Origin: Squalus acanthias
Taxonomy: Eukaryota
Assembly: GCA_030390025.1 (NCBI GenBank)
Contig: CM059431.1
Location: forward strand, 137,704,001-137,768,000
DNA length: 64,000 bases
Reading direction: 5' to 3'
Part shown: positions 9,864 to 53,600 of the stretch, piece after piece
Layout of the letters: the number at the start of each line of letters is the position of its first letter
How positions within the stretch are numbered: position 1 is the first letter of the stretch
Notes under the pieces: model-generated
What the model saw: only the letters and a program-made list of their open reading frames with translations
Told to the model about the DNA's origin: nothing
The model's database searches: none
Translations under genes and position numbers: made by a program

Positions 9864-10063
9864 NNNNNNNNNNNNNNNNNNNNNNNNNNNNNNNNNNNNN
9901 NNNNNNNNNNNNNNNNNNNNNNNNNNNNNNNNNNNNNNNNNNNNNNNNNNNNNNNNNNNNNNNNNNNNNNNNNNNNNNNNNNNNNNNNNNNNNNNNNNNN
10001 NNNNNNNNNNNNNNNNNNNNNNNNNNNNNNNNNNNNNNNNNNNNNNNNNNNNNNNNNNNNNNN
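9864..10063. other. Assembly gap (200 N)
   Basis: Exactly 200 N between two different satellites; true size and relative orientation of the two sides are unverified. Confidence 0.99.
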
Positions 10064-22000: not shown

Positions 22001-23335
22001 AGTGGTGGTCCAAAGCGAGAAACAGGGGTGGTCCAAAGCTAGAAATATTGAAGGTCCAAATCTAGAAAGAGTGGAGATTCAAAGCTAGAAATAGTGAAGG
22101 TCAAAAGTAAGAAACAATTGAGATCCAAAACTAGAAACTGTGAAGGTCCATAGCTAGACACAGTGGTGGTCCAAAGCTAGAAAAATTCGTGGTCCAAAGC
22201 TAGAAACAGTGAAGTTCCAAAGTTAGAAACAGTGAATGTCCAAATCTAGAAACACTGTGCGGCCAAAGCTATAAACAGTGAAGACCAAAGCTAGAAACAG
22301 TAAAGGTCCAAAGCTAGAAACAGTGAAGGTCCAAAGCCAGAAACAGTGAAGGTCCAAAGTTAGAAACAGTGAAAGTAAAATCTAGAAATTGTGAAGGTCC
22401 AAAGCTAGAAAGAGTTTTGGTCGAAAGCTAAAAACAGTGGAGGTCCAAAGCTAGAAACAGTGAAGGTTGAAAGCTAGAAACAGTGTTGGTCCAAAGCTAG
22501 AAACAGTGAAGGTCCAAAGCCGGAAACAGTGAAGGTCGAAAGCTAGAAACAGTGGAGGTCCACAGCTAGAGACAGTGAAAGTCCAAAGCTAGAAAGAGTG
22601 GAGCTCCAAAGCCAGCAAGAGTGGAGCTCCAAAGCTAGAAACAGTGGAGGACCACAGCTAGAAAGCGTGGAGATCCTAAGCTAGAAACAGTGACGATCCA
22701 AAGCTAGCAACAGTGGAGGTCCACAGCAAGAGAGAGTGAAGGGCCAAAGCTAGAAACAGTGAAGGTACAAAGCTAGAAAGAGTGGAGATCCAAATCTAAA
22801 TATAGTGAAGTTCCATATCTAGAACCGGTGAAGGTCCAAAGCTAGAAAAAGTGAAGGTCCATAGCTGGAAACAGTGAATGTCCAAAGCTAGAAACACTGG
22901 AGGTCCAAATCTTGAAACAGTGGAGGTCCAAAGCTTGAAACAGTGGAGGTCCAAAGCTCGAAACAGTGAAAGTGCAAAGTTAGAAACAGTGAATGTCCAA
23001 ATCTAGAAACACTGTACGTCCAAAGCTAGAAACAGTGGAGGTCCAAAGCTAGAAACAGTGGAGTTCCAAAACCAGCAATAGTAAAGGTCCAAAGCTAGAA
23101 ACAGTGAAGTTCCAAAGCTAGAAACAGTAGAGGTCCAAAGCTAGAAACAGTGAAGGTCCAAAGCTAGAAACAGTAGAGGTCCAAAGGTATAAAGAGTGAA
23201 GATCCAAAGCTAGAAACAGTGACGGACCAAAGCTAGAAACAGTGGAGGTCCAAACCTAGGAAGAGTGAAGGTCCAAAGCTAGAAGTAGTGAACTCCAAAG
23301 CTAGAAGCAGTGAAGGTCCAAAGCTAGAAATAGCC
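10064..23335. repeat. 23-bp tandem satellite (CTAGAAACAGTGGAGGTCCAAAG), ~13.3 kb, with higher-order structure
   Basis: CTAGA at 10086, 10109 etc.; diagnostic variant monomers recur at 1288-bp and ~4620-bp spacing. Confidence 0.98.
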
Positions 23336-33966: not shown

Positions 33967-34735
33967 TTTAAAAAACTGTGCGAAATCTGTCCAGCTTTAC
34001 GGTTCGGACTGGAGTGTATCTGAGATCAGTAAATACTCCCCATTTATAGAACAATCGGGGCCCAGGTCAGAAAAAAACATGTTACACAATAAGTGGCGTT
34101 AGTTACAGTCACTTAACAAACAAGGGGCGATTTTCCGCTTCAGTGCGCCCGGCCGCAAGTGGGGAAATTGTATGGAAAGTAATCCCAGAGGGAATGTGCC
34201 CTGCGCATGGTCCCTGAACGCTGAATGGAACATCCCTCCTGGTCTCTGCCTTAGGCTCTTGAGGTTTCAAATCCATTCGCTGAAAATCTTACTCATCCAT
34301 TGCATTAGCTAAATTTGTTTTTTTACTGCAATGATACCGAGTGATAATTCCGCTTTAATATTACTGGCAATGATTCATCGCTTACAATACTAGTGATGAC
34401 TCCTCTCTAACATTGCTGGCGGTGATCCTACTCTAATATTAATGGCAATGAGGCTACGCCGACTTTAATGCTGGTGATCCTATTCTACCGTTACTGGTGG
34501 TGATTATAATCTAAAATTACCGCTGGTAACCCAACATAAAAAAAAACTGGTTGATACCACTCTACCATTATTACTGGTAAAGATATACTAAAATTACTGA
34601 TGTTGATCTTATTGTAATTAATGGGGATGACCCTACTCCAGCATAATTGTAGTGACCATACTCTAACATTACTGGTCTTTGGTCCTACTCTAACATTAAT
34701 GGTGGTGACTCTACTCTACCATTATTGTGGTTAAC

Positions 34736-36313
34736 TTTAGAATTCGCAAAATTATCGCGATTTTATAATAACGAGAAGGAGACATAAAGTTTCGTATGAA
34801 CAGCTTTATTTCAGCAGAATGCTGTCATGTTTCAAAAGGGACACAAGCAGCCTGTAAAATGGCCACCACGCCTCGTGGCAGAAGGTTCTAGACTTTCAGT
34901 AGGCAGACAAGATGGCGTTTCATTAAACATTTCAGCAAGATCGGACAGGACTCAGCACATTGGAGATAATGACAAGACGCGATGGGTTTGCATTTTAAAC
35001 ATAAATACTGGAATCGGTTTTCCAGGTCTATTGTACTGGGCGATCAAGGACCCATCCAAAGACATTGATATGCGAATTCCCCACGGCTCTACGATGAGAG
35101 AGCCGTTCGCGGGTACTTACAGCAAGCATTTGGAAGCCCCAAAACCCCTCCAGGGAGACTCCTAGCCGGTTCCACAATGGGAGAAATATTAACGGGTACT
35201 CAGACACTTACAAGCATCACCGAGACCGATTAACGACAAGTACCACTCCATACAAGAAGATTGAGCACCAAAACATGACAAAAGATGGACATTAAGATTG
35301 GGCGGGAGATAAGGAATTACAGTACTATAAACTGTAGTGTCCAAACGTCCATCTTTCTCTTATCCTCTGGCTGTTCATCGTGCTCTTAGTCTTTACCACC
35401 GACTGGAGCTCTGGACTCTCATTCTCTGATCCACTGATTTTCCGGGAGTCAACCTCGTGGCTTGCCGCGAAGATCTGTGGAGAACTGGTCTGCGAAGGCC
35501 AGTAAAACGGGCGCACCATCCCGAGAAGTCGGTAAACGGTGTTGGAACCGAAGGCCCGAGAGGAGATGAGATGAGATGAGATGAGAAGAGAAGAAGACGA
35601 CAACACGTATCGCCACGGTCAGTAAGCCCCGACCGCGCCTGTAAATCGATTAGACTCTTCTTCGAGTTCTACTGAACCAGTGTAGGGCACAGGAAGACTC
35701 TTTTTCGAGTGGTGTCCGAACTCCGAGGTCAACACAGATCTTCATTGCAGCAGACGGTCCAGCCTGCTAGCCGGAGCAAAGCGAGTAAACAAGTGGGTTA
35801 CAGAGACCCCGGATCAACACGTGAATAGTCAGGTGTTGCCGAGCAGCGTTTTGGAATTCTCTGAGTTATCACGAGTGGTGAGCATGAGTCTCGATCCTAC
35901 AAATCTAGATTAGGACAGGTATTGATAGGGGAGGGTTTATGTTTTAAGGATAATTATAATGTGTGTCCCCTTTTACGATGTGTCGTGCGCTCCTCGTTTC
36001 CCTAAACCTAGTTGCATAAATGTGTGTAAGTTTGTACTGTCAGTAATCTGTGCTTATGACATGTATTTCGTAATCTTGAATAATATGCAATAAAGATTTT
36101 CCATTTCGCACTGTTCAACCGGGTCTAACTGAGTTTTTCTCTACATTATTGTTCTCGCACCTAAGTCCAGTGTCAGAACCGTAAGGGCGAGTGGGTCGAA
36201 CCACTCACAGGTGTCTCGTGCTACCAGGCTGGCTAGAGACCAGAATAGGCAACAAGGCCTAACCCCGCACTAGCACCCAGGCTAAGCACAGAGCCACGGC
36301 GAAACCCCTTACA
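34736..36313 (+). repeat. 5' LTR (1578 bp)
   Basis: Starts TTTAGAATTCGC (TG mutated to TT), ends CCCCTTACA; about 35 substitutions plus one 5-bp (GAGAT)n indel versus the 3' LTR by manual count. Confidence 0.96.
35295..35335 (+). promoter_or_regulatory. Candidate LTR promoter: inverted CCAAT/GC box and TATAAA (35326-35331)
   Basis: GATTGGGCGGG followed ~25 nt later by TACTATAAAC; TATA retained in the 3' LTR. Confidence 0.5.
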
Positions 36314-36318
36314 GACAA

Positions 36319-36336
36319 TGGCGACCACGAAGGGAC
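36319..36336 (+). promoter_or_regulatory. Primer-binding site, tRNA-Arg(UCG)-like
   Basis: TGGCGACCACGAAGGGAC 5 nt after the LTR; its reverse complement GTCCCTTCGTGGTCG-CCA matches, from memory, the 3' end of a vertebrate tRNA-Arg(TCG). Confidence 0.85.
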
Positions 36337-36379
36337 ACTGGCAGCGAGAAAATAATGTGTTAGACCTTGGTATGAATGG

Positions 36380-38140
36380 GTGAAATGTTATGGAAGAGGG
36401 AATAGCAGATTATGTTTTTGGAAAAGTGAATTTTCTAAGAGATGGATAAGTGACCTGCTGGTGGATAAGCGTCCACTAGAGGCAGCCATGAGGTGGACAG
36501 GTAGCAAGGAACATAAAAAATCTGTAGAGAAAGCTGTCTGGCTGATGTGTTATAAAAGGCAAGTCCAGATTTCGGACCAGGTCATCGTAGCGCAGGCAGC
36601 TCAGATCAATTGTTTGGAGGTGGAGATGGACGAGAAGGTCGCGAGGGGGCAGCAGCTCATCGCGTCTTTAAATGCGTTGCATCAGGAATGCCAGTTAGTC
36701 GCCAACCACCATGAGGCGAAAATAGATTACCTCGAGTGCCAGGTCACTGAGGCCAAATTAAATGAGGGCAGAATAAGGGAACGATGTGCCCGCCTAGCTG
36801 CTCAAATAAAAGCCCAGGAAGAGAGCTTAAAGGGGGTTAGGGCGGCATATAAGATGGCCCTCGAGGATAAACATGAGGGGGCCGACCACAGCGTCTGCCA
36901 GAGAGAGATAGGGAACCTTAAAGAGGCCCTGAATAAAGCGCACTGCATGGTGTGCCTCATCAGCCCGTCAGCGCACCAGCCGCAGGTGGGTGGGGAATTC
37001 CAAAAATCCCTACCAAACAAGGCACAGGAGGTATTTGCCACTGCACCCTCCGTGCCGCCCAGCTATTCGGCAACCTGGGTAAGGGAGGAAGTGGTAGAAG
37101 TAGAGGAAGAGGTCCCCGAGGTAGTACAGCTCCCGGAGGTAGTAGTGAAGCCGGGACCATTGTGCCCGCTTACAGGTATCAAGAGGGGCCCGAACGGAGA
37201 CGATGGGGAAGAGGGGAATCTCCTCAACCAGCTTGTGTTGCCTCACAGCGCACACCAGCTGAGGGCTATGATCAGCCACGTACGGAAGCTGTCCGAGTCA
37301 GACAACCCTTCCGTACATTTCAGGGAGGTAGAGCAGACCGCAGCCATTAACGGCTGCGACGATGGGGAAAGGGCAAAAATGCTGCTGGTCTCCTTAGACA
37401 GCTCGATCCTCCAGTGTCTCTCAGACGCGAGCAAAAGGGGAGATCATACCTATGGGGAATTGAGGGACGAGGTCCTGGAAGTGTTGGGAGCGGACGATGA
37501 AGGTTCGTTCGTTAGATTGGGACAGACAGTGCAGATGGAGGGAGAACCCCCGAAGGTTTTCACCGACAGGCTGTGGCCTGTCTATCAGCGTAGTTGCCCA
37601 GGCGCGCCCGAGCGTGTTGATTTAGACGGTGTTGGTTTAGCTCACTGGCTCAGATATATAGTACCCAACAGCTTACCAGCCGTGAGGGAGCAGGCAAAAG
37701 CGTGGTTTGATCCCAATAACGCCGCCACAACAGAGGAGTCGGTCCTAAATCGACTCACGGTAGGGTACCGTAATACTAGGAGCACGGGAGCGCGTCCCCT
37801 TAAGGGAAAGGTGCATGAGGCACGGCCCAGCGCCCCGGCTCAAAGGGAGTGGCATCAGGAGGGAAATCGCGTCCCACGAGCCAGTAATGCTTGTTTCGGG
37901 TGCGGAAAGACAGGGCACTGGCGCAACAACTGCAGGAACACTTGGAAAGAGTCCAGGGATAAAAATCCCGCAGCCCGAGCCCAGGTGCCTGCCCCCGATA
38001 AGGGAGCTGGTGTGCCTATCCATCCCGATGCGATAGAATCAATGCTGGGAGCCATGCGGACCCTCATGATTTCGCAAGGCTGGGTGACAGTCGCTACCGG
38101 CCCCGCAGATGCCGCAGCCCCATCTGCCGGTACCCAATGA
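36380..38140 (+). CDS. gag: Gag polyprotein (coiled coil, capsid-like region, CCHC zinc knuckle); start uncertain (frame open from 36356, first ATG 36488)
   Basis: Long ORF directly after the PBS; CFGCGKTGHWRNNC (CX2CX4HX4C) at 37892-37933; heptad-rich N-terminal third. Confidence 0.9.
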   Translation: MKCYGRGNSRLCFWKSEFSKRWISDLLVDKRPLEAAMRWTGSKEHKKSVEKAVWLMCYKRQVQISDQVIVAQAAQINCLEVEMDEKVARGQQLIASLNALHQECQLVANHHEAKIDYLECQVTEAKLNEGRIRERCARLAAQIKAQEESLKGVRAAYKMALEDKHEGADHSVCQREIGNLKEALNKAHCMVCLISPSAHQPQVGGEFQKSLPNKAQEVFATAPSVPPSYSATWVREEVVEVEEEVPEVVQLPEVVVKPGPLCPLTGIKRGPNGDDGEEGNLLNQLVLPHSAHQLRAMISHVRKLSESDNPSVHFREVEQTAAINGCDDGERAKMLLVSLDSSILQCLSDASKRGDHTYGELRDEVLEVLGADDEGSFVRLGQTVQMEGEPPKVFTDRLWPVYQRSCPGAPERVDLDGVGLAHWLRYIVPNSLPAVREQAKAWFDPNNAATTEESVLNRLTVGYRNTRSTGARPLKGKVHEARPSAPAQREWHQEGNRVPRASNACFGCGKTGHWRNNCRNTWKESRDKNPAARAQVPAPDKGAGVPIHPDAIESMLGAMRTLMISQGWVTVATGPADAAAPSAGTQ

Positions 38141-39253
38141 CTAGAGCCCACGCAGCCTGCCTACCTGTGTCCTTTTAAAAGACACGCACAGGAGGGGGTC
38201 TCCTGTGAGGAGGCCAGGTTAAAAGAGCAGGCCCTGCGGGAGGAAAACGCCCGCTTAATAGGGAAAGTAGACGAGCTAGAAGGGCAGCTTAGAGAGCAGG
38301 CCTTACGGGAGCAGAACGCCCGCTTAATGGGGAAAATAGATGGGCTAGAAGGGCAGCTTAGAGAGATAAAAGCAGCCTGCAGGGTAGCCAGAAGCAGGAA
38401 GTATGAGGATTTTAACCAGTGCAAGCTGTATAAGCCGGGTGCACAAGGGCAAACCACAGGGGCCAAACCTGTGAGTAGGGACTCGCAGCCCCGGGTAGGG
38501 CCACAGGGCACACAGGCAGGCAAAGCAGCTGACATCAGGGGAGAGGACATCCTAGCAAAATGTAGGATCCTTTATTGGGGTTGGGAGTCAGATGAGGAAG
38601 AGTTCGAGGAGCTCGACCAAGATCGTGACACAAGCGAAGAGGAGCTGGAATCGGAGGACGAAAGGGTCGCCACCGATTCAGGTAAAGGGAAGATAGGGAC
38701 TGCAGATGGAGATCCACACAGGGTGGAGACAGAAGCTGCAGGTCCCGAACTCAGTGGGGCGGGGCTAGGGGAGGCGGAGCCAGCGGCTGTAGTGGGACCA
38801 CAGGACGTGGCAATGGAAGCCTCAGAACCCAGTTCGTCCGACTTGAACGTCTTGCCCTCGAGGGAGGTAGGGACTGCGAGTGAAGGTCCGCCTACTGGGC
38901 CAAGTAGGGCGGTGTCAGAGGCTGCAGATCCCGAGTTCAGGGAGGCGGATTCAGGGGAGGCGGAGCCAGCGACTGTGGTGGGACCACGGGTCGCCACGGT
39001 GGAAGTCTTGAAACCCGGTCCGTCAGTCCTGGAGTTCCTGCCCACGGTAGTTCCCCGTAGGTCAAGTCGGACACCCCAGCCCAGGATGATGTGGGTAAGT
39101 CCCCAGAGTGTCCCAAGGCGTAGGGTCAAGGCTAAGGCAGCCCAGGGAGATCCCAGTCCCAGCGCAGCAGCAACAGGCTGCGGCAGATCAAAGGGAGGGG
39201 TCAGCACCCTCCCACCGTTGGGAAAAGCTTGTGGCCGCCTTCACAGAATTTGA
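38141..39253 (+). CDS. Gag readthrough extension ('ORF X', 370 aa) in the pol position: duplicated Gag-like coiled coil, acidic repeats, basic tail
   Basis: Same frame as gag; I translated 38141-38326 with no stop, joining the listed ORF 38327-39253; gag stop context CAA-TGA-CTA-G. Confidence 0.72.
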   Translation, partial: LEPTQPAYLCPFKRHAQEGVSCEEARLKEQALREENARLIGKVDELEGQLREQALREQNARLMGKIDGLEGQLREIKAACRVARSRKYEDFNQCKLYKPGAQGQTTGAKPVSRDSQPRVGPQGTQAGKAADIRGEDILAKCRILYWGWESDEEEFEELDQDRDTSEEELESEDERVATDSGKGKIGTADGDPHRVETEAAGPELSGAGLGEAEPAAVVGPQDVAMEASEPSSSDLNVLPSREVGTASEGPPTGPSRAVSEAADPEFREADSGEAEPATVVGPRVATVEVLKPGPSVLEFLPTVVPRRSSRTPQPRMMWVSPQSVPRRRVKAKAAQGDPSPSAAATGCGRSKGGVSTLPPLGKACGRLHRI

Positions 39254-39482
39254 GTAGGCCGCCCTGGGAACGGGCGGCGCTGTACAGTTTATAAGATAAG
39301 TGATAAGTTTTAGTTTGGAAGTTTTGTAAGCTTTATATTAAATGTTAATAAGTAAAAGTAATGATGGGCGTTTAGATTAGGTTTAGTTAAAAGATCTATC
39401 CAGTGCACATGTCTTCTTACGTGAGGCGAGGTCAGGGGACCCGCTCACCCTTCACAAAAGCCAGAGACTCTTGGGAGGCTGG

Positions 39483-39506
39483 CTACCTCATTCTATCTGA
39501 TCACAG
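39483..39506 (+). promoter_or_regulatory. Candidate env splice acceptor
   Basis: CTACCTCATTCTATCTGATCACAG|G, 13 nt before the env ATG at 39520 (AGGATGG). Confidence 0.5.
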
Positions 39507-39519
39507 GAACCAAGGAAGG

Positions 39520-41945
39520 ATGGAACGGATTCTGGTAGAGCTCACGGCACTTGGATGTGGATTGGCCTATCGAGGCCGCACCAAGGATGTTGTGGTGTTT
39601 GGATGCTCCGGTGACACGGCCCCCATCGCGGTGGATGGGACCGGGAGAAGAGAGGCTGAGGAGACCGCCACTGATTTCCACAAGGGAAGGTGGCCAGGAT
39701 GGCTGGGAACGAATTCCACTGAGTATTCCAGTACATCGGGATTTGCCTACAAAGAGACTTCTTTAATGTGCCCCAAAGTGAGGATCATCGCACCCAGAGT
39801 CAGCGTCACCTTCGGCAAACGGATTTGTTTGACTTGTAATGGGAATGTCCCATTGAGCCGATGGTGGTGGCTATGAAAGCTGAGCAAAAACATGAGGAAA
39901 TCTTCGGTCGAGTGGGAGCGACTGGATAATAATACCCATCGGACAATTACGGGGACTGACGGACAATTGAAAGTCTGTTGGGACAAATGGTGGGAACCGG
40001 ATGAGGGAATTTATGTGTGTATGTGGGGGTCGAAGCACGTCTGCCCCAAAGGCATCTCCATATTTTTCATCAATCAGTGGCAGGATAATGGGAAAGGGAT
40101 GAGGTGGGATGCAAGCACCAGGGGGTGCGGGGCTCCATACTCTCCGATCCCGGTAAATGCCACTGAACTCATTACGCGCCCACACAAGGCCCCGCCCACA
40201 ATTCCGGTGGTTCTAGCTAAGGAAGAAGGGTGCCCTAAAACCAGTAAGGGACCCGGGAATGGTTTGGTACTGGTCCCTACAGACAAGCTACTGTTTCAGG
40301 GGGTACATTATGTGGTGGCTTCGGTGATTTTAAATCTCACCGAGATGCGGTTGCCAGAATGGTGCCCCAAAGAGACGGAACAATTGTACCAGGTCCTGTT
40401 GACCAAGATGTTTAGGCAATTTTATGAGTTCGATTTCGCGGAAATTGATAAAACGAGTTTGTACACCGCACCACATGAAGTTTTGGGCCAGGTGGGGAGG
40501 CAAAGAAGGGGTATTGTGAACGATATGTTCACCGCTTTTAATACAGGAACATCTGTGGTCAACGCTCTAGACAACGTGGAGCTGCAGACCCAGGTTAATG
40601 GTTTAAAAACACAATTAAAGAATATCCTCACCGACGAAAATAAGGTGGTTGGGTCTGGGTTACATGAGGACAAGGCCATGACTCTCCATTTGAAGGAAAA
40701 TATTGCTGAGCTGGAGAAACATGCGCGTACGGTAAATGCCCTGATTAGGGAAGATCGGAATGCATCCGATCAAGCTGCGCAGAACGAGGTGTGCGTACTA
40801 TACGGGGCGTGGTTACTGGGCGAGGGCCGCAGTAATTTAAAGGATTTAAAACAAGGTTTGGTCCCCTCCTGGATAAGTAACAAACACCTGCAGGTGCTCC
40901 ACCCTTTTCAGAATGCATTAAGTCCGTGCCAGCTCAGGCTAGCTTCAGAAGCATACCCAGTCCCCGTGGACTGCGGACGATCAAACCACACCATTATGGG
41001 TGTAGTTTTACGTATGCCGGTTTTGGGCGACACAGCAAAGACCGCCCCGGTATATCGGGTAGAGAACATTGGTGTTATTCAGGGGGGAGCCCACATTCGC
41101 TATGCAGCGGTTCCACCTTACGTCATCCGCTGGGAGCAAACGATGACAGGTACAGATCTCTCTGGTTGTCGTGGCAGGGGAGCACACATAATCCTGTGTC
41201 CCCAGCACTTTATTGCCTTTTTAGCACTACAGTGCGGGTTCAGAACGGCTGGCGCCAAGCCCATGAATTGCACCATGGAGGCAATGGCACAAGATCATGT
41301 GCCTCCGCAGGTAGCATACATCGGGGTGGAACATATTGTGTTACCACTGCAGCGCAACTCTACCAGCATGGAAAGCGTAGCCGGTGTCCGGTGAGTGACA
41401 GCAGTTTCTGTTTTAAACCCAGGGCTGAAGTTCAAGTGGCACAGCAGCGAATTGTCCCGATCCCTGAACCATCCACTGTTCATCTAACAGTAAAAGAGAA
41501 TTTTACCGACTTGCAGCGATTCGTCGCGCATTTCGGATACCTCATTCCCCCTCTCCCTGAACACCTCACCAAACTTTTGAAAGCCGTAGCGGTTTCGCAG
41601 AAACATTTTTATACCCTTGAGCAAAAGACCGTCGAGATAGGGTCAGAGATCCTAGACATAGTAATCCCGCCGTGGTGGGATCTGTTCACCAACATTGAAG
41701 TGCCTTCCTGGATTAGAATAGCCTCCCACATTTTAGTTCTATGCCAGGTAATAATTGTAGTGTACCTATTGGTCGTGCATTGCAAGAGGGGCAAGCGCCT
41801 CACCAAACAGGAAAACACGGGAGAGTGGCGAGAGCGTTACGTGCGCGTGCACGAAGAAAGCGCCTGCGTAAATGACCAGAGTGACGTCACTCCAGTTTTT
41901 TCATGTGTGTCTCGAATTTGTTTACGGATTGTTATTTTTTCTTAG
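39520..41945 (+). pseudogene. env: env: signal peptide, Ig-like domain, F-type class I fusion glycoprotein, TM anchor (~808 aa reconstructed); one in-frame stop (39874) and one frameshift (~41323-41326)
   Basis: ORFs 39403 and 39892 share a frame; furin site RQRR|GIVNDMFTAFNTG at 40498-40510; heptad repeat; Cys-rich middle; TM IASHILVLCQVIIVVYLLVVHC; 8 N-x-S/T sequons. Confidence 0.87.
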
Positions 41946-42318: not shown

Positions 42319-43901
42319 TGTAGAATTCGCATAATTATCGCGATTTTATAATAACGAGAAGGAGACATAAAGTTTCGTATGAACAGCTTTATTTCAGCAG
42401 AATGCTGTCATGTTTCAAAAGGGACACAAGCAGCCTGTAAAATGGCCGCCACGCCTCGTGGCAGAAGGTTCTAGACTTTCAGTAGGCAGACAAGATGGCG
42501 TTTCATTAAACATTTCAGCAAGATCGGACAGGACTCAGCACATTGGAGATAATGACAAGACGCGATGGGTTTGCATTTTAAACATAAATACTGGAATCGG
42601 TTTTCCAGGTCTATTGTACTGGGCGATCAAGGACCCATCCAAAGATATTGATATGCGAATTCCCCACGGCTCTAGGATGAGAGAGCCGTTCGCGGTGACT
42701 TACAGAAAGCATTTGGAAGCCCCAAAACCCCTCCAGGGAGACTCCTAGGCGGTTCCACAATGGGATAAATATTAACGGGTACTCCGACAGTTACAAGCAT
42801 CACCGAGACCGATTAACGACAAGTACCACCCCATACAAGAAGTTTGAGCGCCAAAACATGACAATAGATGGACATTAAGATTTGGGGAGAGATAAGGAAT
42901 TACAGTACTATAAACTGTAGTGTCCAAACGTCCATCTTTCTCTTATCCTCTGGCTGTTCATCGTGCTCTTAGTCTTTACCACCGACTGGAGCTCCGGACT
43001 CTCATTCTCTGATCCGCTGATTTTCCGGGAGACAACCTCGTGGCTTGCCGCGAAGATCTGTGGAGAACTGGTCTGCGAAGGCCAGTAAAACGGGCGCACC
43101 ATCCCGAGAAGTCGGTAAACGGTGTTGGAAACGAAGGCCCGAGAGGAGATGAGATGAGATGAGACGAGATGAGAAGAGAAGAAGACGACAACACGTATCG
43201 CCACGGTCAGTAAGCCCCGACCGCGCCTGTAAATCGATTAGACTCTTCTTCGAGTTCTACCGAACCGGTGTAGGGCACAGGAAGACTCTTTTTCGAGTGG
43301 TGTCCGAACTCCGAGGTCAACACAGATCTTCATGACAGCAGACGGTCCAGCCTGCTAGCCGGAGCAAAGCGAGTAAACAAGTGGGTTACAGAGACCCCAG
43401 ATCAACACGTGAATAGCCAGGTGTTGCCGAGCAGCGTTTCGGAATTCTCCGAGTTATCACGAGTGGTGAGCATGAGTCTCGATCCTACAAATCTAGATTA
43501 GGACAGGTATTGATAGGGGAGGGTTTATGTTTTAAGGATAATTATAATGTGTGTCCCCTTTTACGATGTGTCGTGCGCTCCTCGTTTCCCTAAACCTAGT
43601 TGCATAAATGTGTGTAAGTTTGTACTGTCAGTAATCTGTGCTTATGACATGTATTTCGTAATCTTGAATAATATGCAATAAAGATTTTCCATTTCGCACT
43701 GTTCAACTGGGTCTACCTGAGTTTTTCTCTACATTATTGTTCTCGCACCTAAGTCCAGTGTCAGAACCGTAAGGGCGAGTGGGTCGAACCACTCACAGGT
43801 GTCTAGTGCTACCAGGCTGGCTGGAGACCAGAATAGGCAACAAGGCCTAACCCCGCACTAGCACCCAGGCTAAGCACAGAGCCACGGCGAAACCCCTTAC
43901 A
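42319..43901 (+). repeat. 3' LTR (1583 bp)
   Basis: TGTAGAATTCGC...CCCCTTACA followed by TSD CAAC (43902-43905). Confidence 0.96.
43677..43682 (+). terminator. Candidate LTR polyadenylation signal
   Basis: AATAAA (36089-36094 in the 5' LTR) followed by GT/T-rich sequence. Confidence 0.55.
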
Positions 43902-45870
43902 CAACCTATTCTATGATTACTAGCGTTCACTCTCCTCAAAAATTACTGTCGGTGAAGCTATCTAACATTGCATGTAGTAACCATACTGTAATATTACTGG
44001 TGGGGGCTCTACGCTAATATTATTGGTAGTGATTCTACTCTAACATTAATGATGGTGACCCTAATCTAACATTAATGGTGGTGACGCTAATCTAAAATTA
44101 CTGGTGTTGACCTTGCGCTACCATGAATTGTGGACACCCTACTCTAACATTACTGGTGGTGACCCTACTCTCTCATTACTGGTGGTGACTCTACTCTAAC
44201 ATTACTGGTGATGACCCTAATCAAACATTAATGCTGGATACCATATTCTAACATTACCGTTGGTGAATCAAATCTAACATTACTGGTGGTGACACTACTG
44301 TAACATTTCTGGTGGTGTATATACTCGAACATTACCGGTGGTGACCCTACTCTAACGTTACTGGTCTTTGGTCCTACTCTAACCTTAATGGTGCTGACAC
44401 TACTCTACGATTATTGTGGTCAACCTACTCTATGATATCTAGCGGTCACCCTACTCAAAAATTACTGGCGGTGAAGCTATCTAACATTACATGTAGTAAC
44501 CATACTGTAATATTACTGGTAGGGGCTCTACGCTTATATTATTGGTAGTGATTCTACTCTAACATTAATGGTGGTGACCCTACACTAACATTAATGGTGG
44601 TGAAACTAATCTAAAATTACTGGTGGTGACCTTGCGCTATCATGAATTGTGGAGACCCTACTCTAACATTACTGGTGGTGACTCTACTCTAACATCACTG
44701 GAGGTGACCCTAATCAAACATTAATGCTGGATACCATATTCTAACATTACCGTTGGTGAATCAAATCTAACATTACTGGTGGTGACACTACTGTAACATT
44801 TCTGGTGATGTATATACTCGAACATTACCGGTGGTGACCCTACTCTAACATTATTGGTGGTGACTCTACTATAACATTACTGGTGGTGGCCCTACTCTGA
44901 AATTACTGGTGGTAACTCTACTCTAACATTACTGGTGGTGACTCTACTCGAACATTACTGCTGGTGACCCTACTCTAACATTACTGGTGGTGATCATACT
45001 CTAACATTATTGGTGGTGACCCTACTCTAACATTACTGGTGGTGACCATACTCTAACATTAATGCTGGTGACCCTAATCTAAAATTACTGGTGGTGACCT
45101 TGCGCTATCATGACTTGTGGAGACTCTTCTCTAACATTAAGGTGGTGAACCTAATCTAACATTAATGGAGGTGCCATTAATCTATCATTAGTGATGGTGA
45201 CCCTACTCTCACATTACTGGTGGTGACTCTACTCTAACATTACTGGTGGTGACCCTAATCAGACATTAATGCTGGATACTTACTCTAACATTACAGTTAG
45301 TGACTCAAATCTAACATTACTGGTGGTAACACTACTGTAACATTGCTGGTGGTGTACATACTCGAACATTACTGGTGGTGATTCTTCTCTAATATTACTG
45401 GTGGTGACTCTACTATAACATAACTGGTTGTGACCCTACTCTGACATTACTTTTGGTAACTCTCCTCTATTATTACTGGTGGTGACTCTACTCTAACATT
45501 ACAGGTGGTGACCCTTCACTAACATAACTGGTGTTGACCCTATTCTAACATTAATGGCGGTGACCCTACTCTAACATTACTGATGGTGACCCTACACTAA
45601 CGTTACTGGTGGTCACACTACTCTAACATTAGTGGAGGTGACGCTACTCTAACATTACTGGTGGTGACAGTACTCTATCATTACTGGTGGTGACACCAAA
45701 CTAACATTACTGGTGGTAACCCTACACTAACATTACTGGTGCTGACCCTACTCCAACATTACTGGTGTTGACTCTACTCTAACATTAATGGTGGTGACCC
45801 TACTATAACTTTACTGTTGGTGACCCTACTTTAACATTACCGGTGGTGAATCTACTATAACATTACTAGT

Positions 45871-46283
45871 GGGCATAATCTTATAATAAGGGGATGCTCT
45901 TTCAAAACTGAGATGAGGAGAAACTTCTTCACTAAGAGGGTAGTAAGTCTGTGGAATTTGCTGCCCCAGGAAGCTGTGGAAGCTACATCATTAAATAAAT
46001 TTAAAACAGAAATAAACAGTTTCCTAGAAGTAAAGGGAATTAGGGGTTACGGGGAGCGGGCAGGACATTGGACATGAGGCTGAGTTCGGATCGGTCAAGG
46101 TCCTGTGGGTGGCGGAGCGGGCCCAGGGGCTGAGTGGCCGGGTCCTGCTCCGACTTCTTGTGTTCTTTAGATTTGAGGTTATGATCAGATCAGCCATGAT
46201 CTTATTGAGTGGTGGAGCAGTCTCGTTGGGCCGATTGGTCTACTCCTGCTCCTATTTCTTATGTTCTTATGTTCTTATGTTCT
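45871..46283 (+). mobile_element. 5'-truncated CR1 3' end in the satellite, copy A
   Basis: FKTEMRRNFFT coding end and (TTCTTATG)n tail; flanked by TAACATTACTAGTGG on both sides. Confidence 0.9.
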
Positions 46284-49200
46284 TAACATTACTAGTGGTG
46301 ACTCTACTCTAACATTAATGGTGGTGACCCTACTTTAACATTACTGGTGGTGAACCTACACTAACGTTACTGGTGGTGACTCTTCTCAAACAGTGCTGGT
46401 GGTAACCCTGCTTTAACATTACTGATGGTGAACCTACTGTAACATTACTCGTCTTGACCCTTCTCTAACATTACCTGTGGTGACCCTACTTTAACATTGC
46501 CGGTGGTGAATCTACTATAACATTACTGGCGGTGACCCAATTTAACATTACTGGTGGTGACTGTACTCTAACATAACTCGTGGTGACCCTACTCCAACAT
46601 TAATTGAGCTGACCCTATTCTAACATTACTCGTGGTGACACTACTATAACATTACTCGTGGTGACTGTAATATAACATTACTGGTGGTGACCCTACTCTA
46701 ACATAACTGGTGATGACTCTACTCTAACATTGCTGGTGGTGACCCTACGCTAACATTATTGATGGTGAGACTACTCTACCATTAATGGAGTTGACCCTAC
46801 TCTAGCATTAATAGTTGTGACTCTACTCCAGTATTACTGGTGATGACCCTAATCTAACATTACTGGTGGTGACTCTACTTGAACATTACTGTTGGTGACA
46901 CTACGCTAACATTATTGCTGGTGATCCTACTCTAACATTAATGGTGGAGATTCTACTCTGACATTAATGTTGGTGACCCTACTCTAACATTACTGGTGGT
47001 GACCCTACTCTCACATTACTTGTGGTGACGCTACACTAACAATAATGCTGGTTACCCTACACTAACATTACAGGTGATGACCCTGCTATAACATTACTAG
47101 TGGTGACCCTAATCTAACATTACTGGCGGTGACTCTACAACATCATTACTGGTGGTTACTCTACTCTAACTTTATTGGTGGTGACCCTACACTATAATTA
47201 CTGGTGTTGACACTTCTCTAAAATTAATTGTGTTGACCCTACGTTAACAGTACTGGTTGTGACTCTACTCTAACATTACTGGTGGTGAACCTACTGTAAC
47301 ATTAATGGTGGATAATCTACTCTAACATTACTGGTGTTGACCCTACTATAACATTAATGGCGGTGACCTTAATCTAACATTACTGGTGGTTACCGTACTC
47401 TAACATTAATGGTGGAGACTCTACTCTAATATTACTGTCGTTGACCCTACTCTAACATTAATGGCAGTGACCCTACTTTAACATTACTGGTGGTGACTCT
47501 ACTCTAACATTACTGGTGGTGAGCACACACTAACATTAATTGAGGTGACTCTTCGCTAACAGTACTGGCGGTGACTCTACACTAACATTACCGGTGGTGA
47601 CCCGACTCTAACATTACTGGTGGTGACTCTACTCTAACATTACTGGTGGTGACCCTACTCTAACATTACTGGTGGTGACCCTACACTAACATTACTGGTG
47701 TTGACCCTACCCTAACATTACTGGTGGTGACCCTACTCTGTCATTACTGGTGGTGACTCTACTCTAACATTACTGGTGGTGACCCTGCTCCAACATTACC
47801 GGTGTTGACACTATACTGCCAGTGCTGGGGTTAACCCTACTTTAACATTACTGTTGGTGTACCTACTGAAACATTACTGGTGGTGACTGTACTCTAACAT
47901 TACTGATGTTGACTCAACACTACCAGTACTGGTGTTAACCCTACTTTAACATTACTGTTGGTGTACCTACTGAAACATTACTGGTGGTGACTGTACTCTA
48001 ACATTACTGTTGGTGACTCTACTCTAACATTACTGGTGGTGAACTATAACATTACTCGTGGTGACTGTACTCCAGTATTACAGGTGCTGACCCTACTCAA
48101 TCATTACTGGTGGTGACCCTACTATACAATTTCTGGTGGTGTATTTGCTCTAACATTGCTGGTGCTGAATCTACTATAGCATTACTGGTGGTGACTATAA
48201 TCTAAAATTACTGGTGGTGACGCTACTCTAACAATGCTGGTGGTGACCCTACTCTAACATTACTGGTGGTGACGCTACTCTACCATTAATGGAGGTGACC
48301 CTACTCTAACATTAATCGTGGTGACTCTTCTCCAGTATTATTGGTGGTGACCCTAATCTAACAATACTGGTGGTGACTCTACTTGAACATTACTGTTGGT
48401 GACGCTACGCTAACATTACTGGTGGAGATCCTACTCTGACATTAATGGTGGAGACTCTACACTAACATTACTGGTGGTGACCCTACTCTAACATTACCGG
48501 TGGTGACCCTACTCTCTCATTACTGGTGGTGACTCTACACTAATAATAATGCTGGTTACCCTACTCTAACATTACTGGTGATGACCCTACTATAACATTA
48601 CTAGTGGTGACCCTAATCTAACATTACTGGCGGTGACTCTACACCATCATTACTGGTGGTTCCTCTACTCTAACATTACTGGTGGTGAACCTACTCGAAC
48701 ATTAATGGTGGAGAATCTACTCTAATATTACTGGTGTTGAACCTACTCTAACATTAATGGCGGTGACCTTAATCTAACATTAATGGTGGTTACCCTACTC
48801 TAACATTAATGGTGGAGACTCTACTCTAATATTACTGTCGTTGACCCTACTCTAACATTAATGGCAGTGACCCTACTTTAACATTACTGGTGGTGACACT
48901 ACACTAACATTACTTGTGGTGAGCCCACACTAACATTAATTGAGGTGACTCTTCTCTAACATTACTGGCGATGACTCTACACTAACATTACCGGTGCTGA
49001 CCCTACACTATAATTACTGGTGTTGACCCTTCTCAAAAATTAATTGTGTTGACCCCACGTTAACAGTACTGGTTGTGACTCTACTCTAACATTACTGGTG
49101 GTGAACCTACTCTAACATTAATGGTGGATAATCTACTCTAACATTACTGGTGTTGAGCCTGCTCTAACATTAATGGCGGTGACCTTAATCTAACATTACT

Positions 49201-50268
49201 GGTGGTTACCCTACTCTAACATTAATGGTGGAGACTCTACTCTAATATTACTGTCGTTGACCCCACTCTAACATTAATGGCAGTGACCCTACTTTAACAT
49301 TACTGGTGGTGACTCTACTCTAACATTACTGGTGGTGAGCCCACACTAACATTAATTGTGGTGACACTTCTCTAACATTACTGGCGTTGACTCTACACGA
49401 ACATTACCGGTGGTGACCCCACTCTAACAGTACTGGTGGTGACTCTACTCTAACATTACTGGTGGTGACCCTACTCTAACATTACTTTTGGTGATCATAC
49501 TCTAACATTAATGGTGGTGACCCTACTCTAACATTACTGGTGGTAACCATACTCTAACATTAATGCTGGTGACCCTAATCTAAAATTACTGGTGGTGACC
49601 TTGCACTATCATGACTTGTGGAGACTCTTCTCTAACATTAATGTTGTGACCCTAATCTAACATTAATGGAGGTGCCATTACTCTAACATTAGTGATGGTG
49701 ACCCTACTCTATCATTACTGGTGGTGACTCTACTCTAACATTACTGGTGGTGACCCTAATCAAACATTACTGCTGGATACCCTACTCTAACATTACCGTT
49801 GGTGACTCAAATCTAACATTACTGGTGGTGACACTACTGTAACATTGCTGGTGGTGTATATACTCTAACATTACTGGTGGTGATCCTACTCTAACATTAC
49901 TGGTGTTGACTCTACTATAACATTACTGGTTCTGACCCTACTCTGACATTACTGGTGGTAACTCTCCTCTATTATTACTGGTGGTGACTCTACTCTAACA
50001 TTACAGGTGGTGACCCTTCACTAACATAACTGGTGTTGACCCTATTCTAACATTAATGGCGGTGACCCTACTCTAACATCACTGATGGTGACCCAACACT
50101 AAAATTACTGGTGGTCACACTACTCTAACATTAGAGGAGGTGACGCTACTCCAACATTACTGGTGTTGACTCTACCCTAACATTAATGGTGGTGACCCTA
50201 CTATAACTTTACTGGTGGTGACCCTACTTTAACATTACCGGTGGTGAATCTACTATAACATTACTAGG

Positions 50269-50673
50269 GGGCATAATCTTAGAATAAGGGGCTGCTCTTT
50301 CAAAACTGAGATGAGGAGAAACGTCTTCACTCAGAGGTTAGTAGTTCTGTGGAATTTGCTGCCCCAGGAAGCTGTGGAAGCTACATCATTAAATAAATTT
50401 AAAACAGAAATAAACCGTTTCCTAGAAGTAAAGGGAATTAGGGGTTACGGGGAGCAGTCAGGAAATTGGACACAAGGGTGAATTCGGATCGGTCAAGGCC
50501 CTGTGGGTGGCGGAGCGGGCCCAGGGGCTGACTGGCCGTGTCCTGCTCCTAATTCTTGTGTTCTTTAGATTTGAGGTTATGATCAGATCAGCCATGATCT
50601 TATTGAATGGCGGAGCAGTCTCGTTGGGCCGATTGGCCTATTCCTGCTCCTATTTCTTATGTTCTTATGTTCT
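50269..50673 (+). mobile_element. 5'-truncated CR1 3' end in the satellite, copy B
   Basis: Same truncation point and flanks as copy A, 4398 bp downstream. Confidence 0.9.
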
Positions 50674-53600
50674 TAACATTACTAGTGGTGACTCTACTCT
50701 ATCATTAATGGTGGTGACCCTACTTTAACATTACTGGTGGTGAACCTAAACTATCATTACTGGTGGTGACTCTTCTCAAACAGTACTGGTGGTAACCCTG
50801 CTTTAACATTACTGATGGTGAACCTACTGTAACATTACTCATCTTGACCCTTCTCTAACATTACCCGTGGTGACCCTACTTTAACATTGCCGGTGGTGAA
50901 TCTACTATAACATTACTGGCGGTGACCCAATTTAACATTACTGGTGGTGACTCTACTCTAACATAACTGGTGGTGACCTTATCTAACATTATTTGAGGTG
51001 AACCTATTCTAACATTACTCGTAGTGACTCAACTACAGTATTACTGGTGCTGACCCTACTCTAACATTACTGGTGGTGACACTACTATACAATTCCTGGT
51101 GATTTAGCTTCTCTAACATTGCTGGTGGTGAATCTACTATAACATTACTGGTAGTGACTGTAATGTAACATTACAGGTGGTGACCCTACTCTAACATAAC
51201 TGGTGATGACTCTACTCTAACATTGCTGGTGGTGACTCTACTCTAACATTACTGGTGGTGACTCTACTCTAACATTACTGGTGGTGACCCTACTCTAGCA
51301 TAACTGGTGATGACTCTACTCTAACATTACTGGTGGTGACTCTACTATAACATTACTTGTGGTGACTCTACGCTAACATTACTGATGGTGAGCCTACTCT
51401 ACCATTAATGGAGGTGACCCTACTCTAGCATTAATAGTTGTGACTCTACTCCGGTATTACTGGTGGTGACCCTAATCTAACATTACTGGTGGTGACTCTA
51501 CTTGAACATTACTGTTGGTGACACTACGCTAACATTATTGCTGGTGATCCTACTCTAACATTAATGGTGGAGATTCTACTCTGACATTACTGTTGGTGAC
51601 CATACTCTAACATTACTGGTGGGGACCCTACTCTCACATTACTGGTGGTGACTCTACACTAACAATAATGCTGGTTACCCTACTCTAACATTACTGCTGA
51701 TGACCCTCCTATAACATTACTAGTGGTGATCCTAATCTAACATTACTGGCTGTGACTCTACACCATCATTACTGGTGGTTACTGTACTCTAACTTTACTG
51801 GTGGTGACCCTACACTATAATTACTGGTGTTGACCCTTCTCTAAAATTAATTTTGTTGACCCTACGTTAACAGTACTGGTTGTGACTCTACTCTAACATT
51901 AATGGTGGAGAATCTACCCTAACATTACTGGTGTTGACCCTACTCTAACATTAATGGCGGTGACCTTAATCTAACATTGCTGGTGGTTACCCTACTCTAA
52001 CATTAATGGTGGAGATTCTACTCTAATATTACTGTCGTTGACCCTACTCTAACATTAATGGCAGTGACCCTACTTTAACATTACTGGTGGTGACTCTACT
52101 CTAACATTACTGGTGGTGAGCCCACACTAACATTAATTGAGGTGACTCTTCTCTAACATTACTGGTGGTGAATCTACAATAACATTACCGGTGGTGACCC
52201 TACTCCAGCATTACTGGTGGTGACTCTACTCTAACATTACTGGTGGTGACCCTACTCTAACATTACTGGTGGTGACCCTACACTAACATTACTGGTGTTG
52301 ACCCTACCCTAACATTACTGGTGGTGACCCTACTCTGACATTACTGGTGGTGACTCTACTCTAACATTACTGGTGGTGACCCTGCTCCAACATTACCGGT
52401 GTTGACACTATACTACCAGTACTGGGGTTAACCCTACTTTAACATTACTGTTGGTGTACCTGCTGAAACATTACTGGTGTTGACTGTACTCTAACATTAC
52501 TAGTGTTGACATTACACTACCAGTACTCGTGTTAACCCTACTTTAACATTACTGTTGGTGTACCTACTGAAACATTACTGGTGGTGACTGTACTCTAACC
52601 TTACTGTTGGTGAACTATAACATTACTCGTGGTGACTGTACTCCAATATTACAGGTGCTGACCCTACTCAAACATTACTGGTGGTGACCCTACTATACAA
52701 TTTCTGGTGGTGTATTTGCTATAACATTGCTGGTGCTGAATCTACTATAACATTACTGGTGGTGACTCTAATCTAACATTACTGGTTGTGACGCTAGTCT
52801 AACAATGCTCGTGGTGACCCTACTCTAACATTAATCGTGGTGCCGCTACTCCAGTATTATTGGTGATGACCCTAATCTAACAATACTGGTGGTGACGCTA
52901 CTTGAACATGACTGTTGGTGACGCTACGCTGACATTACTGGTGGAGATCCTACTCTAACATTAATGGTGGAGACTCTACACTAACATTACTGGTGTTGAC
53001 CATACTCTAGCATTAATGGCGGTGACCCTACTTTAACATTACTGGTGGTGACTCTACTCTAACATTACTGGTGGTGAGCCCACACTAACATTAATTGAGG
53101 TGACTCTTCTCTAACATTACTGGTGGTAAATCTACAATAACATTACCGGTGGTGACCCTACTCTAACATTACTGGTGGTGACTCTACTCTAACATTACTG
53201 GTGGTGACCCTACTCTAACATTACTGGTGGTGACCCTACACTAACATTACTGGTGTTGACCCTACCCTAACATTACTGGTGGTGACCCTACTCTGACATT
53301 ACTGGTGGTGACGCTACTTGAACATGACTGTTGGTGACGCTACGCTGACATTACTGGTGGAGATCCTACTCTAACATTAATGGTGGAGACTCTACACTAA
53401 CATTACTGGTGTTGACCATACTCTAGCATTAATGGCGGTGACTCTACTCGAACATTACTAGTGGTGACACTACTCCAACATTACTGGTGGTCACACTACT
53501 CTAACATTACTGGTGGTGAAATACTCTAATGTTACTCCAACAGACAGTCTTAAGTTTAATATGCCCTTAGTTTACTGAGTTCTATTTTCTTGCTTTCTAT

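Follow-up and report, generated by a model that had tools for sequence, protein, structure and literature searches.

An endogenous retrovirus of Squalus acanthias in which a gag coiled coil from a sister family stands in place of most of pol

What stands behind the Gag stop of a retrovirus that has lost most of pol, where did it come from, and what keeps it open? The question is raised by a 64,000-nt stretch of the Squalus acanthias genome, called the window here, whose sequence holds a 9.2-kb provirus. Directly behind the Gag stop of this provirus, and in the same frame, lies an open frame termed X (38141–39253). A first, sequence-only reading had proposed that X begins with a diverged, tandemly duplicated copy of Gag's own coiled coil, and that a gag segment, probably of a related element, had replaced pol and stayed under coding constraint, perhaps as an adaptor or decoy. 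Copies were sought throughout the 3.7-Gb genome, and the results bear on each part of that proposal.

The provirus has two LTRs, a primer-binding site, a purine tract and a target-site duplication (table 1). Over their aligned part, the LTRs show 1541 matches and 34 mismatches. The insertion site is a 26-bp satellite (34350–34735 and 43902–53000); arrays of a related 26-bp type, inverted, lie near 460–1960, and a 23-bp tandem array of about 550 copies occupies 9992–23000. The primer-binding site presumably fits the 3' end of tRNA-Arg(UCG); no tRNA gene was found in the 64,000-nt window. The closest named Gag is a skate protein (56%). By comparison with a skate homologue (P0001), the 5' end of gag is broken near 36,380–36,450 in the window copy; gag open frames of 617 aa are common among sister copies. 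An ATG at 36318–36320, which overlaps the primer-binding site, matches the start of the same homologue, and the gag start may fall inside the primer-binding site. Env is damaged in the window copy by a stop (39874–39876) and a frame change around 41,300–41,400; env open frames of 826–848 aa are common in sister copies. Its closest proteins are from skate and sawshark, its pieces gave no Pfam match (PF00523 included), and a structure model from a 7-sequence alignment reached a pLDDT of 34. The N-terminal part (39877–40100) contains W...D-x-G-x-Y-x-C, which we take to be an immunoglobulin V-type motif. In the five frames scanned in the window copy there was no Pfam match to protease, RT, RNase H or integrase core, and the only pol remnants are its start and tail. 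By every tested feature of its sequence, the element is a non-autonomous, pol-deleted endogenous retrovirus.Table 1. Positions of the features of the provirus and of frame X in the window.
Feature	Positions	Strand	Remark
Target-site copy TAAC, 4 bp	34732–34735		just before 5' LTR
5' LTR	34736–36313	+	direct repeat with 3' LTR; from sequence
Primer-binding site	36319–36336	+	5 nt past LTR; from sequence
gag open frame	36356–38140	+	N-terminal coil, capsid, one CCHC knuckle
Own Gag coil segment resembling the insert	36749–36859	+	distant homologue, ~50% nt identity in register
Gag stop, UGA-CUAG readthrough context	38138–38144	+	X and pol both follow in frame
pol start, first 11 codons (pre-protease stub)	38141–38173	+	first 35 nt near-identical to pol-bearing sisters, divergent beyond
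Predicted extended RNA stem-loop	38148–38240	+	stub 38148–38168 pairs with insert 38213–38240; post hoc
Captured gag coiled-coil piece of sister family 'D'	38177–38413	+	30 nt fewer than donor
Unit 1, 69 nt	38225–38293	+	
Unit 2, 69 nt	38294–38362	+	missing from one-unit copies; one three-unit copy exists
Native pol 3' end	38414–39253	+	last integrase SH3-like residues and long acidic low-complexity tail
141-nt repeat inside pol tail	38720–38860 / 38906–39046	+	
env, broken	39409–41945	+	furin-type RQRR site
3' LTR	42319–43901	+	purine tract precedes
CAAC after 3' LTR	43902–43905		target-site copy, one mismatch to TAAC

The composition of X emerges from comparison with sister copies that retain pol. 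Ten gag-matching loci were fetched as absent from the list of X loci; after the same stop, eight have a retroviral protease start, one is X-type and one could not be parsed. All six of six pol-bearing loci rejoin the window at exactly 38414, in frame and at 90–96% nucleotide identity. This point is the end of the integrase SH3-like domain, and Pfam rve and SH3_Tf2-1 lie upstream of it in the pol-bearing loci. Since pol matches X at both ends, X consists of 11 codons of the pol start, an insert of about 80 codons and a 280-codon pol tail. On these alignments, about 3.6 kb of pol, from protease to integrase core, has been swapped for roughly 170 nt of foreign gag coil. An accessory gene located after pol was considered and rejected, the tail of X being the pol tail itself. 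The lokiretroviral 'smc' gene was likewise rejected: smc heads smc-gag(-pol) polyproteins and is thus the Gag N-terminus (PMC7947760, in the part available). Nor is X a gene of its own, with no start before the ATG at 38327 and 291 of its 370 codons derived from pol. With this layout, readthrough of the Gag stop, giving a Gag-X fusion, is the only way to make X.

Variants of the cassette occur. Some one-unit copies (e.g. G000:C3806:411579 and C794:30326) have an X frame about 200 codons longer, at 519–559 aa, probably by in-frame expansion of the tail repeat. Three X-type loci (L171, L209 and L215) share an extra piece after the insert, which in L209 runs in frame into the tail, and L179 has an integrase piece inside the insert. 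A subset of X-type copies (L034, L105, L108, L111, L115, L117, L141 and, in part, L144–L171) has a shorter Gag C-terminus ending in NPDF; this C-terminus and the stub resemble other sister families. The X cassette may have arisen in another backbone and then moved by recombination.

The source of the insert was sought with a distant Gag fragment as query, which exposed several sister gag families; 26 coil-region loci were sampled. One locus (L077) is identical to the one-unit insert at 105 of 120 nt, with a score of 173. Against the other sister gag families the insert scores 54–105, and against its own Gag 73. BLASTP of the insert gives 1e-20 for the donor-family Gag and 4e-05 for the own Gag. 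The donor family has at least 40 copies at 96–100% (40 scored of 1185 candidates). It has a gag of its own, followed by UGA-CUAG and a protease, and its Gag shares 36% identity with that of the window. In a tree of 25 rows and 144 columns, rooted at the midpoint only and with the last two codons of the X rows derived from pol, the seven X rows join three donor rows with support of 99/99. Forcing X and the own Gag into one clade is rejected (p-AU 0.014). The piece is native to the donor Gag and an insert in X, and the direction is therefore from donor to X. Relative to the donor the insert lacks 30 nt, and its 3' junction holds a few bases found in both sequences (...DLNH in the donor, ...VNQ in the integrase). 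Rather than the true donor itself, the sampled family may be a near sister of it. A donor family is thus present in the same genome. The idea that a related element's gag segment had replaced pol survives in part: the related family exists, and only the middle of pol was replaced.

Gag's own coiled coil as the source does not stand, since the sister-family gag fits better and the grouping with own Gag is rejected. The resemblance from which that idea came is genuine. The first alignment of X with Gag, counted by hand, has 14 of 37 residues identical, and a natural one-unit copy (L046) gives 15 of 37 with no collapsing of a repeat. The local score of 73 beats chance: it was reached by 1 of 2000 whole-X shuffles, by 0–4 of 2000 local shuffles and by none of the 5000 that preserved the heptads. 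The K-x-E..D..C pattern noted in both proteins is partly coincidence, the cysteine belonging to the integrase tail that starts at 38414. The 69-nt tandem duplication is present, and its units are 88% identical. Their differences had been called mostly synonymous or conservative; in fact four of the six differing codons change the residue (E/Q, I/M, V/I and E/G), the E/G pair having been left out of the earlier list. Of the 78 other two-unit loci none has the Q codon, which is private to the window copy, and 4 have its E at unit codon 17, which is thus nearly private as well; the I/M, V/I and silent pairs segregate across the whole family. With a private Q and four of six codons changing the residue, comparison of the two units therefore tells little about constraint. 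Loci L079–L084 show a sister-family Gag in two lengths, the difference being a tandem repeat of about 18–19 residues in the coil, so repeat slips in the coil are not peculiar to X.

The pol-deleted form has been amplified to hundreds of loci, beside pol-bearing sisters. The two-unit query was matched by all 150 candidates scored, of 4982 candidates, and the one-unit form is found at least 100 times (100 of 150 among the matches listed). Upstream of env matches, 40 loci comprised 33 pol-type, 5 X-type and 2 of neither type, in a sample that left out most known X-type loci. A hand tally by coordinates of the best 40 env rows, biased to the lineage of the window copy, gave 18 X-type, 20 pol-type and 2 unassigned. 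Sister loci contain the Pfam domains RVP, RVT_1, RT_RNaseH_2, RNase_H and rve; the order in their pol is PR-RT-tether-RNase H-IN with two RNase H-like domains, and env is present. The best solved relatives are gammaretroviral RT (2e-63), foamy (7e-52) and Ty3 (3e-39), and among named RTs the closest, at about 50%, are 'NYNRIN-like' proteins of amphibians and coelacanth. Judged from its sequence, the family is of retrovirus type, as against Ty3/gypsy. Another sister family (L087, L088, L089, L091, L097 and L098) has pol-deleted derivatives of its own, where TGA-CTAG is followed by a protease stub that continues in frame into an apparent RNase H end; in-frame pol deletion seems to be recurrent in the lineage. 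Sequencing runs (8 small-share runs of 2 studies, 4 of them examined) yielded only diverged contigs of the family, not shown to be RNA. One contig of run X3, a run only guessed to be RNA, has a shorter, one-unit-like insert (joint 38253–38343).

Readthrough of the Gag stop is suggested by its context. Among 92 X-type loci chosen by protein similarity, the context is TGACTAG in 73, TGACTGG in 18 and TGACTCG in 1, and the same UGA-CUAG precedes pol in sister copies. UGACUA(G) followed by an extended stem-loop is a known readthrough signal (PMC13517186, in excerpt). A stem-loop of this kind is predicted here, found post hoc, in which the pol stub pairs with the beginning of unit 1. The 103 nt that begin at the stop fold with a z of -2.25 (6 of 200 shuffles). 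The duplex of stub and insert arm is predicted at -25.3 kcal/mol, matched by 0 of 1993 other windows of the internal region, and at least 10 stub-insert pairs are kept in 54 of 58 distinct copies. The corresponding pairing in pol-bearing copies is weak (-14.3, with 303 of 1234 windows as good). Among 108 copies, the insert arm has shared variants in 1 of its 20 paired columns and in 4 of its 8 unpaired ones; on the stub side 6 of 20 paired columns vary, three of them keeping G-U, and no compensatory double changes were found. With the donor's homologous stretch the stub already gives -19.2; the pairing may thus have helped the recombination to occur, instead of being a product of selection. 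The same stop context is used by alphavirus and related type II signals, which combine UGA-CUA with an extended stem-loop. The predicted stem begins 11–14 nt beyond the stop's first base and spans about 90 nt, within the type II ranges of +2 to +16 and 50–177 nt given in the available part of PMC13517186. It differs from those signals in being only a prediction and in drawing one arm from a captured coding piece.

Maintenance of the frame can be followed through the events that built X. Both insert junctions and the 30-nt loss relative to the donor are in frame, and the later length variants that are shared (+69, +6, -9 and -6) are all multiples of 3. Most loci were chosen by protein similarity, which favours open frames; a further set, chosen by the DNA upstream of the units, comprised 39 of 40 loci (11 one-unit, 27 two-unit and 1 three-unit). 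The frame is kept through the insert in 34 of these 39, one of them with a stop in the stub, and the 5 frameshifts each have a place of their own, mostly within base runs. Across 29 loci, the tail has 7 private shifts and one +1 shift common to 2 loci. Shared indels of every size are frequent in the 155-nt non-coding spacer behind the X stop. These counts are to be read with the caveat that periodic sequence favours in-frame slips and that the tail is renewable from pol-bearing helpers.

Residue constraint was assessed by comparing non-synonymous and synonymous variants (N/S) present in at least three loci with those that are private. The Gag control shows a deficit (79N/91S shared versus 180N/117S private, p=0.002). 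The whole two-unit insert does not (36/22 versus 42/21, p=0.37), nor do one-unit copies alone (12/6 versus 13/17, p=0.97) or the tail (66/34 versus 137/58, p=0.27). The units by themselves, unpooled, do (12/18 versus 27/7, p=0.0014). With all units pooled over 112 loci, p is 0.068, 0.023 and 0.013 at thresholds of 2, 3 and 5 loci, the middle value resting on 15N/14S shared and 21N/5S private variants. In the 39 DNA-picked loci the values are 0.06, 0.015 and 0.016, with 6N/9S shared and 17N/4S private at p=0.015. The neutral N/S expectation for the units is 2.3–3.2. There is thus modest sequence evidence for a constraint on the 23-residue unit, and none for its flanks. Forms with one to three units have spread, as have insertions of two residues and, in 12 loci, a change of L to S; a 23-residue period shifts the heptad phase by 2. 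The spread of unit number, phase shifts, insertions and the L-to-S change counts against a precise interface. Of the earlier statement that the segment stayed under coding constraint, the kept frame and a modest deficit in the units bear it out in part, and the insert as a whole does not reach significance.

What keeps X may mainly be a benefit in cis of continued readthrough, in a helper-dependent, pol-deleted subfamily; this explanation is given an even chance. Recombination put the coil of a sister-family gag in place of the middle of pol, in one frame behind the Gag stop, and a later slip of 69 nt produced the two- and three-unit forms. A few per cent of ribosomes would pass UGA-CUAG, making Gag-X instead of Gag-Pol, and pol-bearing sisters would supply enzymes to the pol-deleted form. 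Selection would mainly maintain readthrough itself: the stop context, a stem-loop rebuilt from stub and insert, and an open frame of 1.1 kb. The RNA would gain in cis through protection from nonsense-mediated decay, through hand-over of translated RNA to particles, or both. The coil would be under loose amino-acid constraint only, enough to remain a soluble helix. Two known cases offer precedent: readthrough shields from nonsense-mediated decay in dependence on downstream frame length (PMC5360307, in excerpt), and the fusion of mouse IAP 1Δ1 is reported to act in cis (PMC6466679, in excerpt). The lack of a deficit in the tail (p=0.27) and the spread of coil variants count for a loose peptide constraint. 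Against the cis explanation count the N/S deficit of the units, which frame-keeping alone does not predict, the stem, which is post hoc, lacks compensatory changes and is weak in pol-bearing copies, and the +1 tail shift common to 2 of 29 loci.

The coil may instead be a protein module, acting in Gag-X or after release by helper protease, that oligomerises or binds the coils of its own or the donor Gag, either as an adaptor carrying the RNA into helper particles or as a decoy aimed at the sister family. This is a serious contender, if an unlikely one. It draws on the same p-values (0.0014 unpooled, 0.013–0.068 pooled by threshold), on the mostly conservative nature of the shared unit changes, on amplification of the unit to two and three copies, and on the 7 amino-acid against 8 silent codon differences between insert and donor over 46 codons, a divergence that may partly predate capture. 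The N-terminal coil of lokiretroviral Gag mediates membrane association, according to the part available of bioRxiv 10.1101/2024.03.25.586437. Set against a module are the missing deficit over the whole insert and in one-unit copies, an identity to the helper coil of only 15 of 37, and heptad phases shifted by the 23-residue duplication and the +2 insertions. For co-assembly a further coil would be superfluous, Gag-X already including a complete Gag. A complex prediction of the N-terminal 200 aa of Gag with the 80-aa insert scored 0.00, with controls not folded, and is evidence neither way. A combined version, in which the captured stretch does two jobs by rebuilding the RNA stem and providing a second coil that binds sister-family Gag, to borrow or jam its particles, appears quite improbable.

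X might also be a neutral scar of recombination, in a shorter element that spread after the loss of pol with its LTRs, gag, env and env splice signals kept; frame and pairing would then be by-products of recombination between similar, codon-periodic sequences. The short shared sequence at the 3' junction fits this account, as do the tendency of coil-repeat slips to stay in frame, the tandem-repeat difference in a sister-family gag coil, the non-significant tests of the whole insert and the tail, and a tail that pol-bearing helpers can refresh. It is made rather unlikely by the fact that the three founding events are all in frame, as are three or more shared indels that arose later, the duplication not counted, while the spacer behind the X stop has many shared indels of every size; by the unit deficit, which recurs in the DNA-picked set; and by UGA-CUNG, kept in 92 of 92 loci. 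It is hardly credible that the coil goes back to an early internal duplication of the own gag, or matches a coiled coil or host gene by chance. The own-Gag similarity above chance and a weak Pfam match of X to Rab11-FIP3 (E 0.0014, below cut-off) speak for it. A host-gene origin was rejected on that sub-threshold match, and an own-gag duplication or chance match is refuted by the donor score (173 against 73; BLASTP 1e-20 against 4e-05) and the rejected clade of X with own Gag.

The X-type element may work like mouse IAP 1Δ1, a very successful element with an in-frame gag-pol deletion, a single open frame ending in 3' pol and a need for helper proteins (PMC6466679, in excerpt). The single open frame across the deletion is common to both. 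In the X-type element, however, gag is whole, the fusion lies behind a readthrough stop and the gap is filled by a foreign gag piece; env is kept, and only the integrase tail remains, without the catalytic domain. Zebrafish BHIKHARI-1 and -2, non-autonomous endogenous lokiretroviruses, are also helper-dependent, with a whole Gag of about 617 aa and an N-terminal coiled coil as here; both lack pol and Bik-2 lacks env, and the available part of the source describes no second coil for them (bioRxiv 10.1101/2024.03.25.586437). The helper of the X-type element, by contrast, is present in the same genome; the likeness to BHIKHARI is one of features. Snakehead retrovirus-like or class III elements (clade Huo; Ovex1) share a coiled-coil Gag, one zinc knuckle, gag-pol in one frame and stop suppression (PMC2717909, in excerpt). 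SnRV-like ERVs occur in cartilaginous fish, among them lineage I of elephant-shark CmiERV, according to the accessible parts of PMC4422223 and PMC6001957. The stop context of SnRV is UAG-GGC (PMC13517186, in excerpt), whereas that of the X family is UGA-CUAG. A coiled-coil Gag with in-frame gag-pol fits both snakehead-like/class III elements and lokiretroviruses, a likeness by features, and the family is assigned to neither. Of 3 chondrichthyan genomes, the Loki survey lists none (PMC7947760, in the part available). The literature searched, which was mostly outside subscription papers, showed no report of a pol-deleted ERV whose gap is filled in frame by a gag coil taken from a sister family.

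The X-type element is real and its origin is explained. As a natural example of a defective retrovirus born from recombination between co-resident families it is clean and high in copy number, and a single genome holds its parent, its donor and its one-, two- and three-unit descendants. The family also points to UGA-CUAG readthrough in a retrovirus lineage, where the review section available gives other contexts only (PMC13517186). Were the two-job version true, a defective retrovirus would have invented a cross-family adaptor or decoy and amplified it to hundreds of copies. If frame and stem are kept for an effect in cis, the family would bear on what maintains the open frame downstream of gag in pol-deleted retroelements, a matter so far judged largely from mouse IAP 1Δ1.
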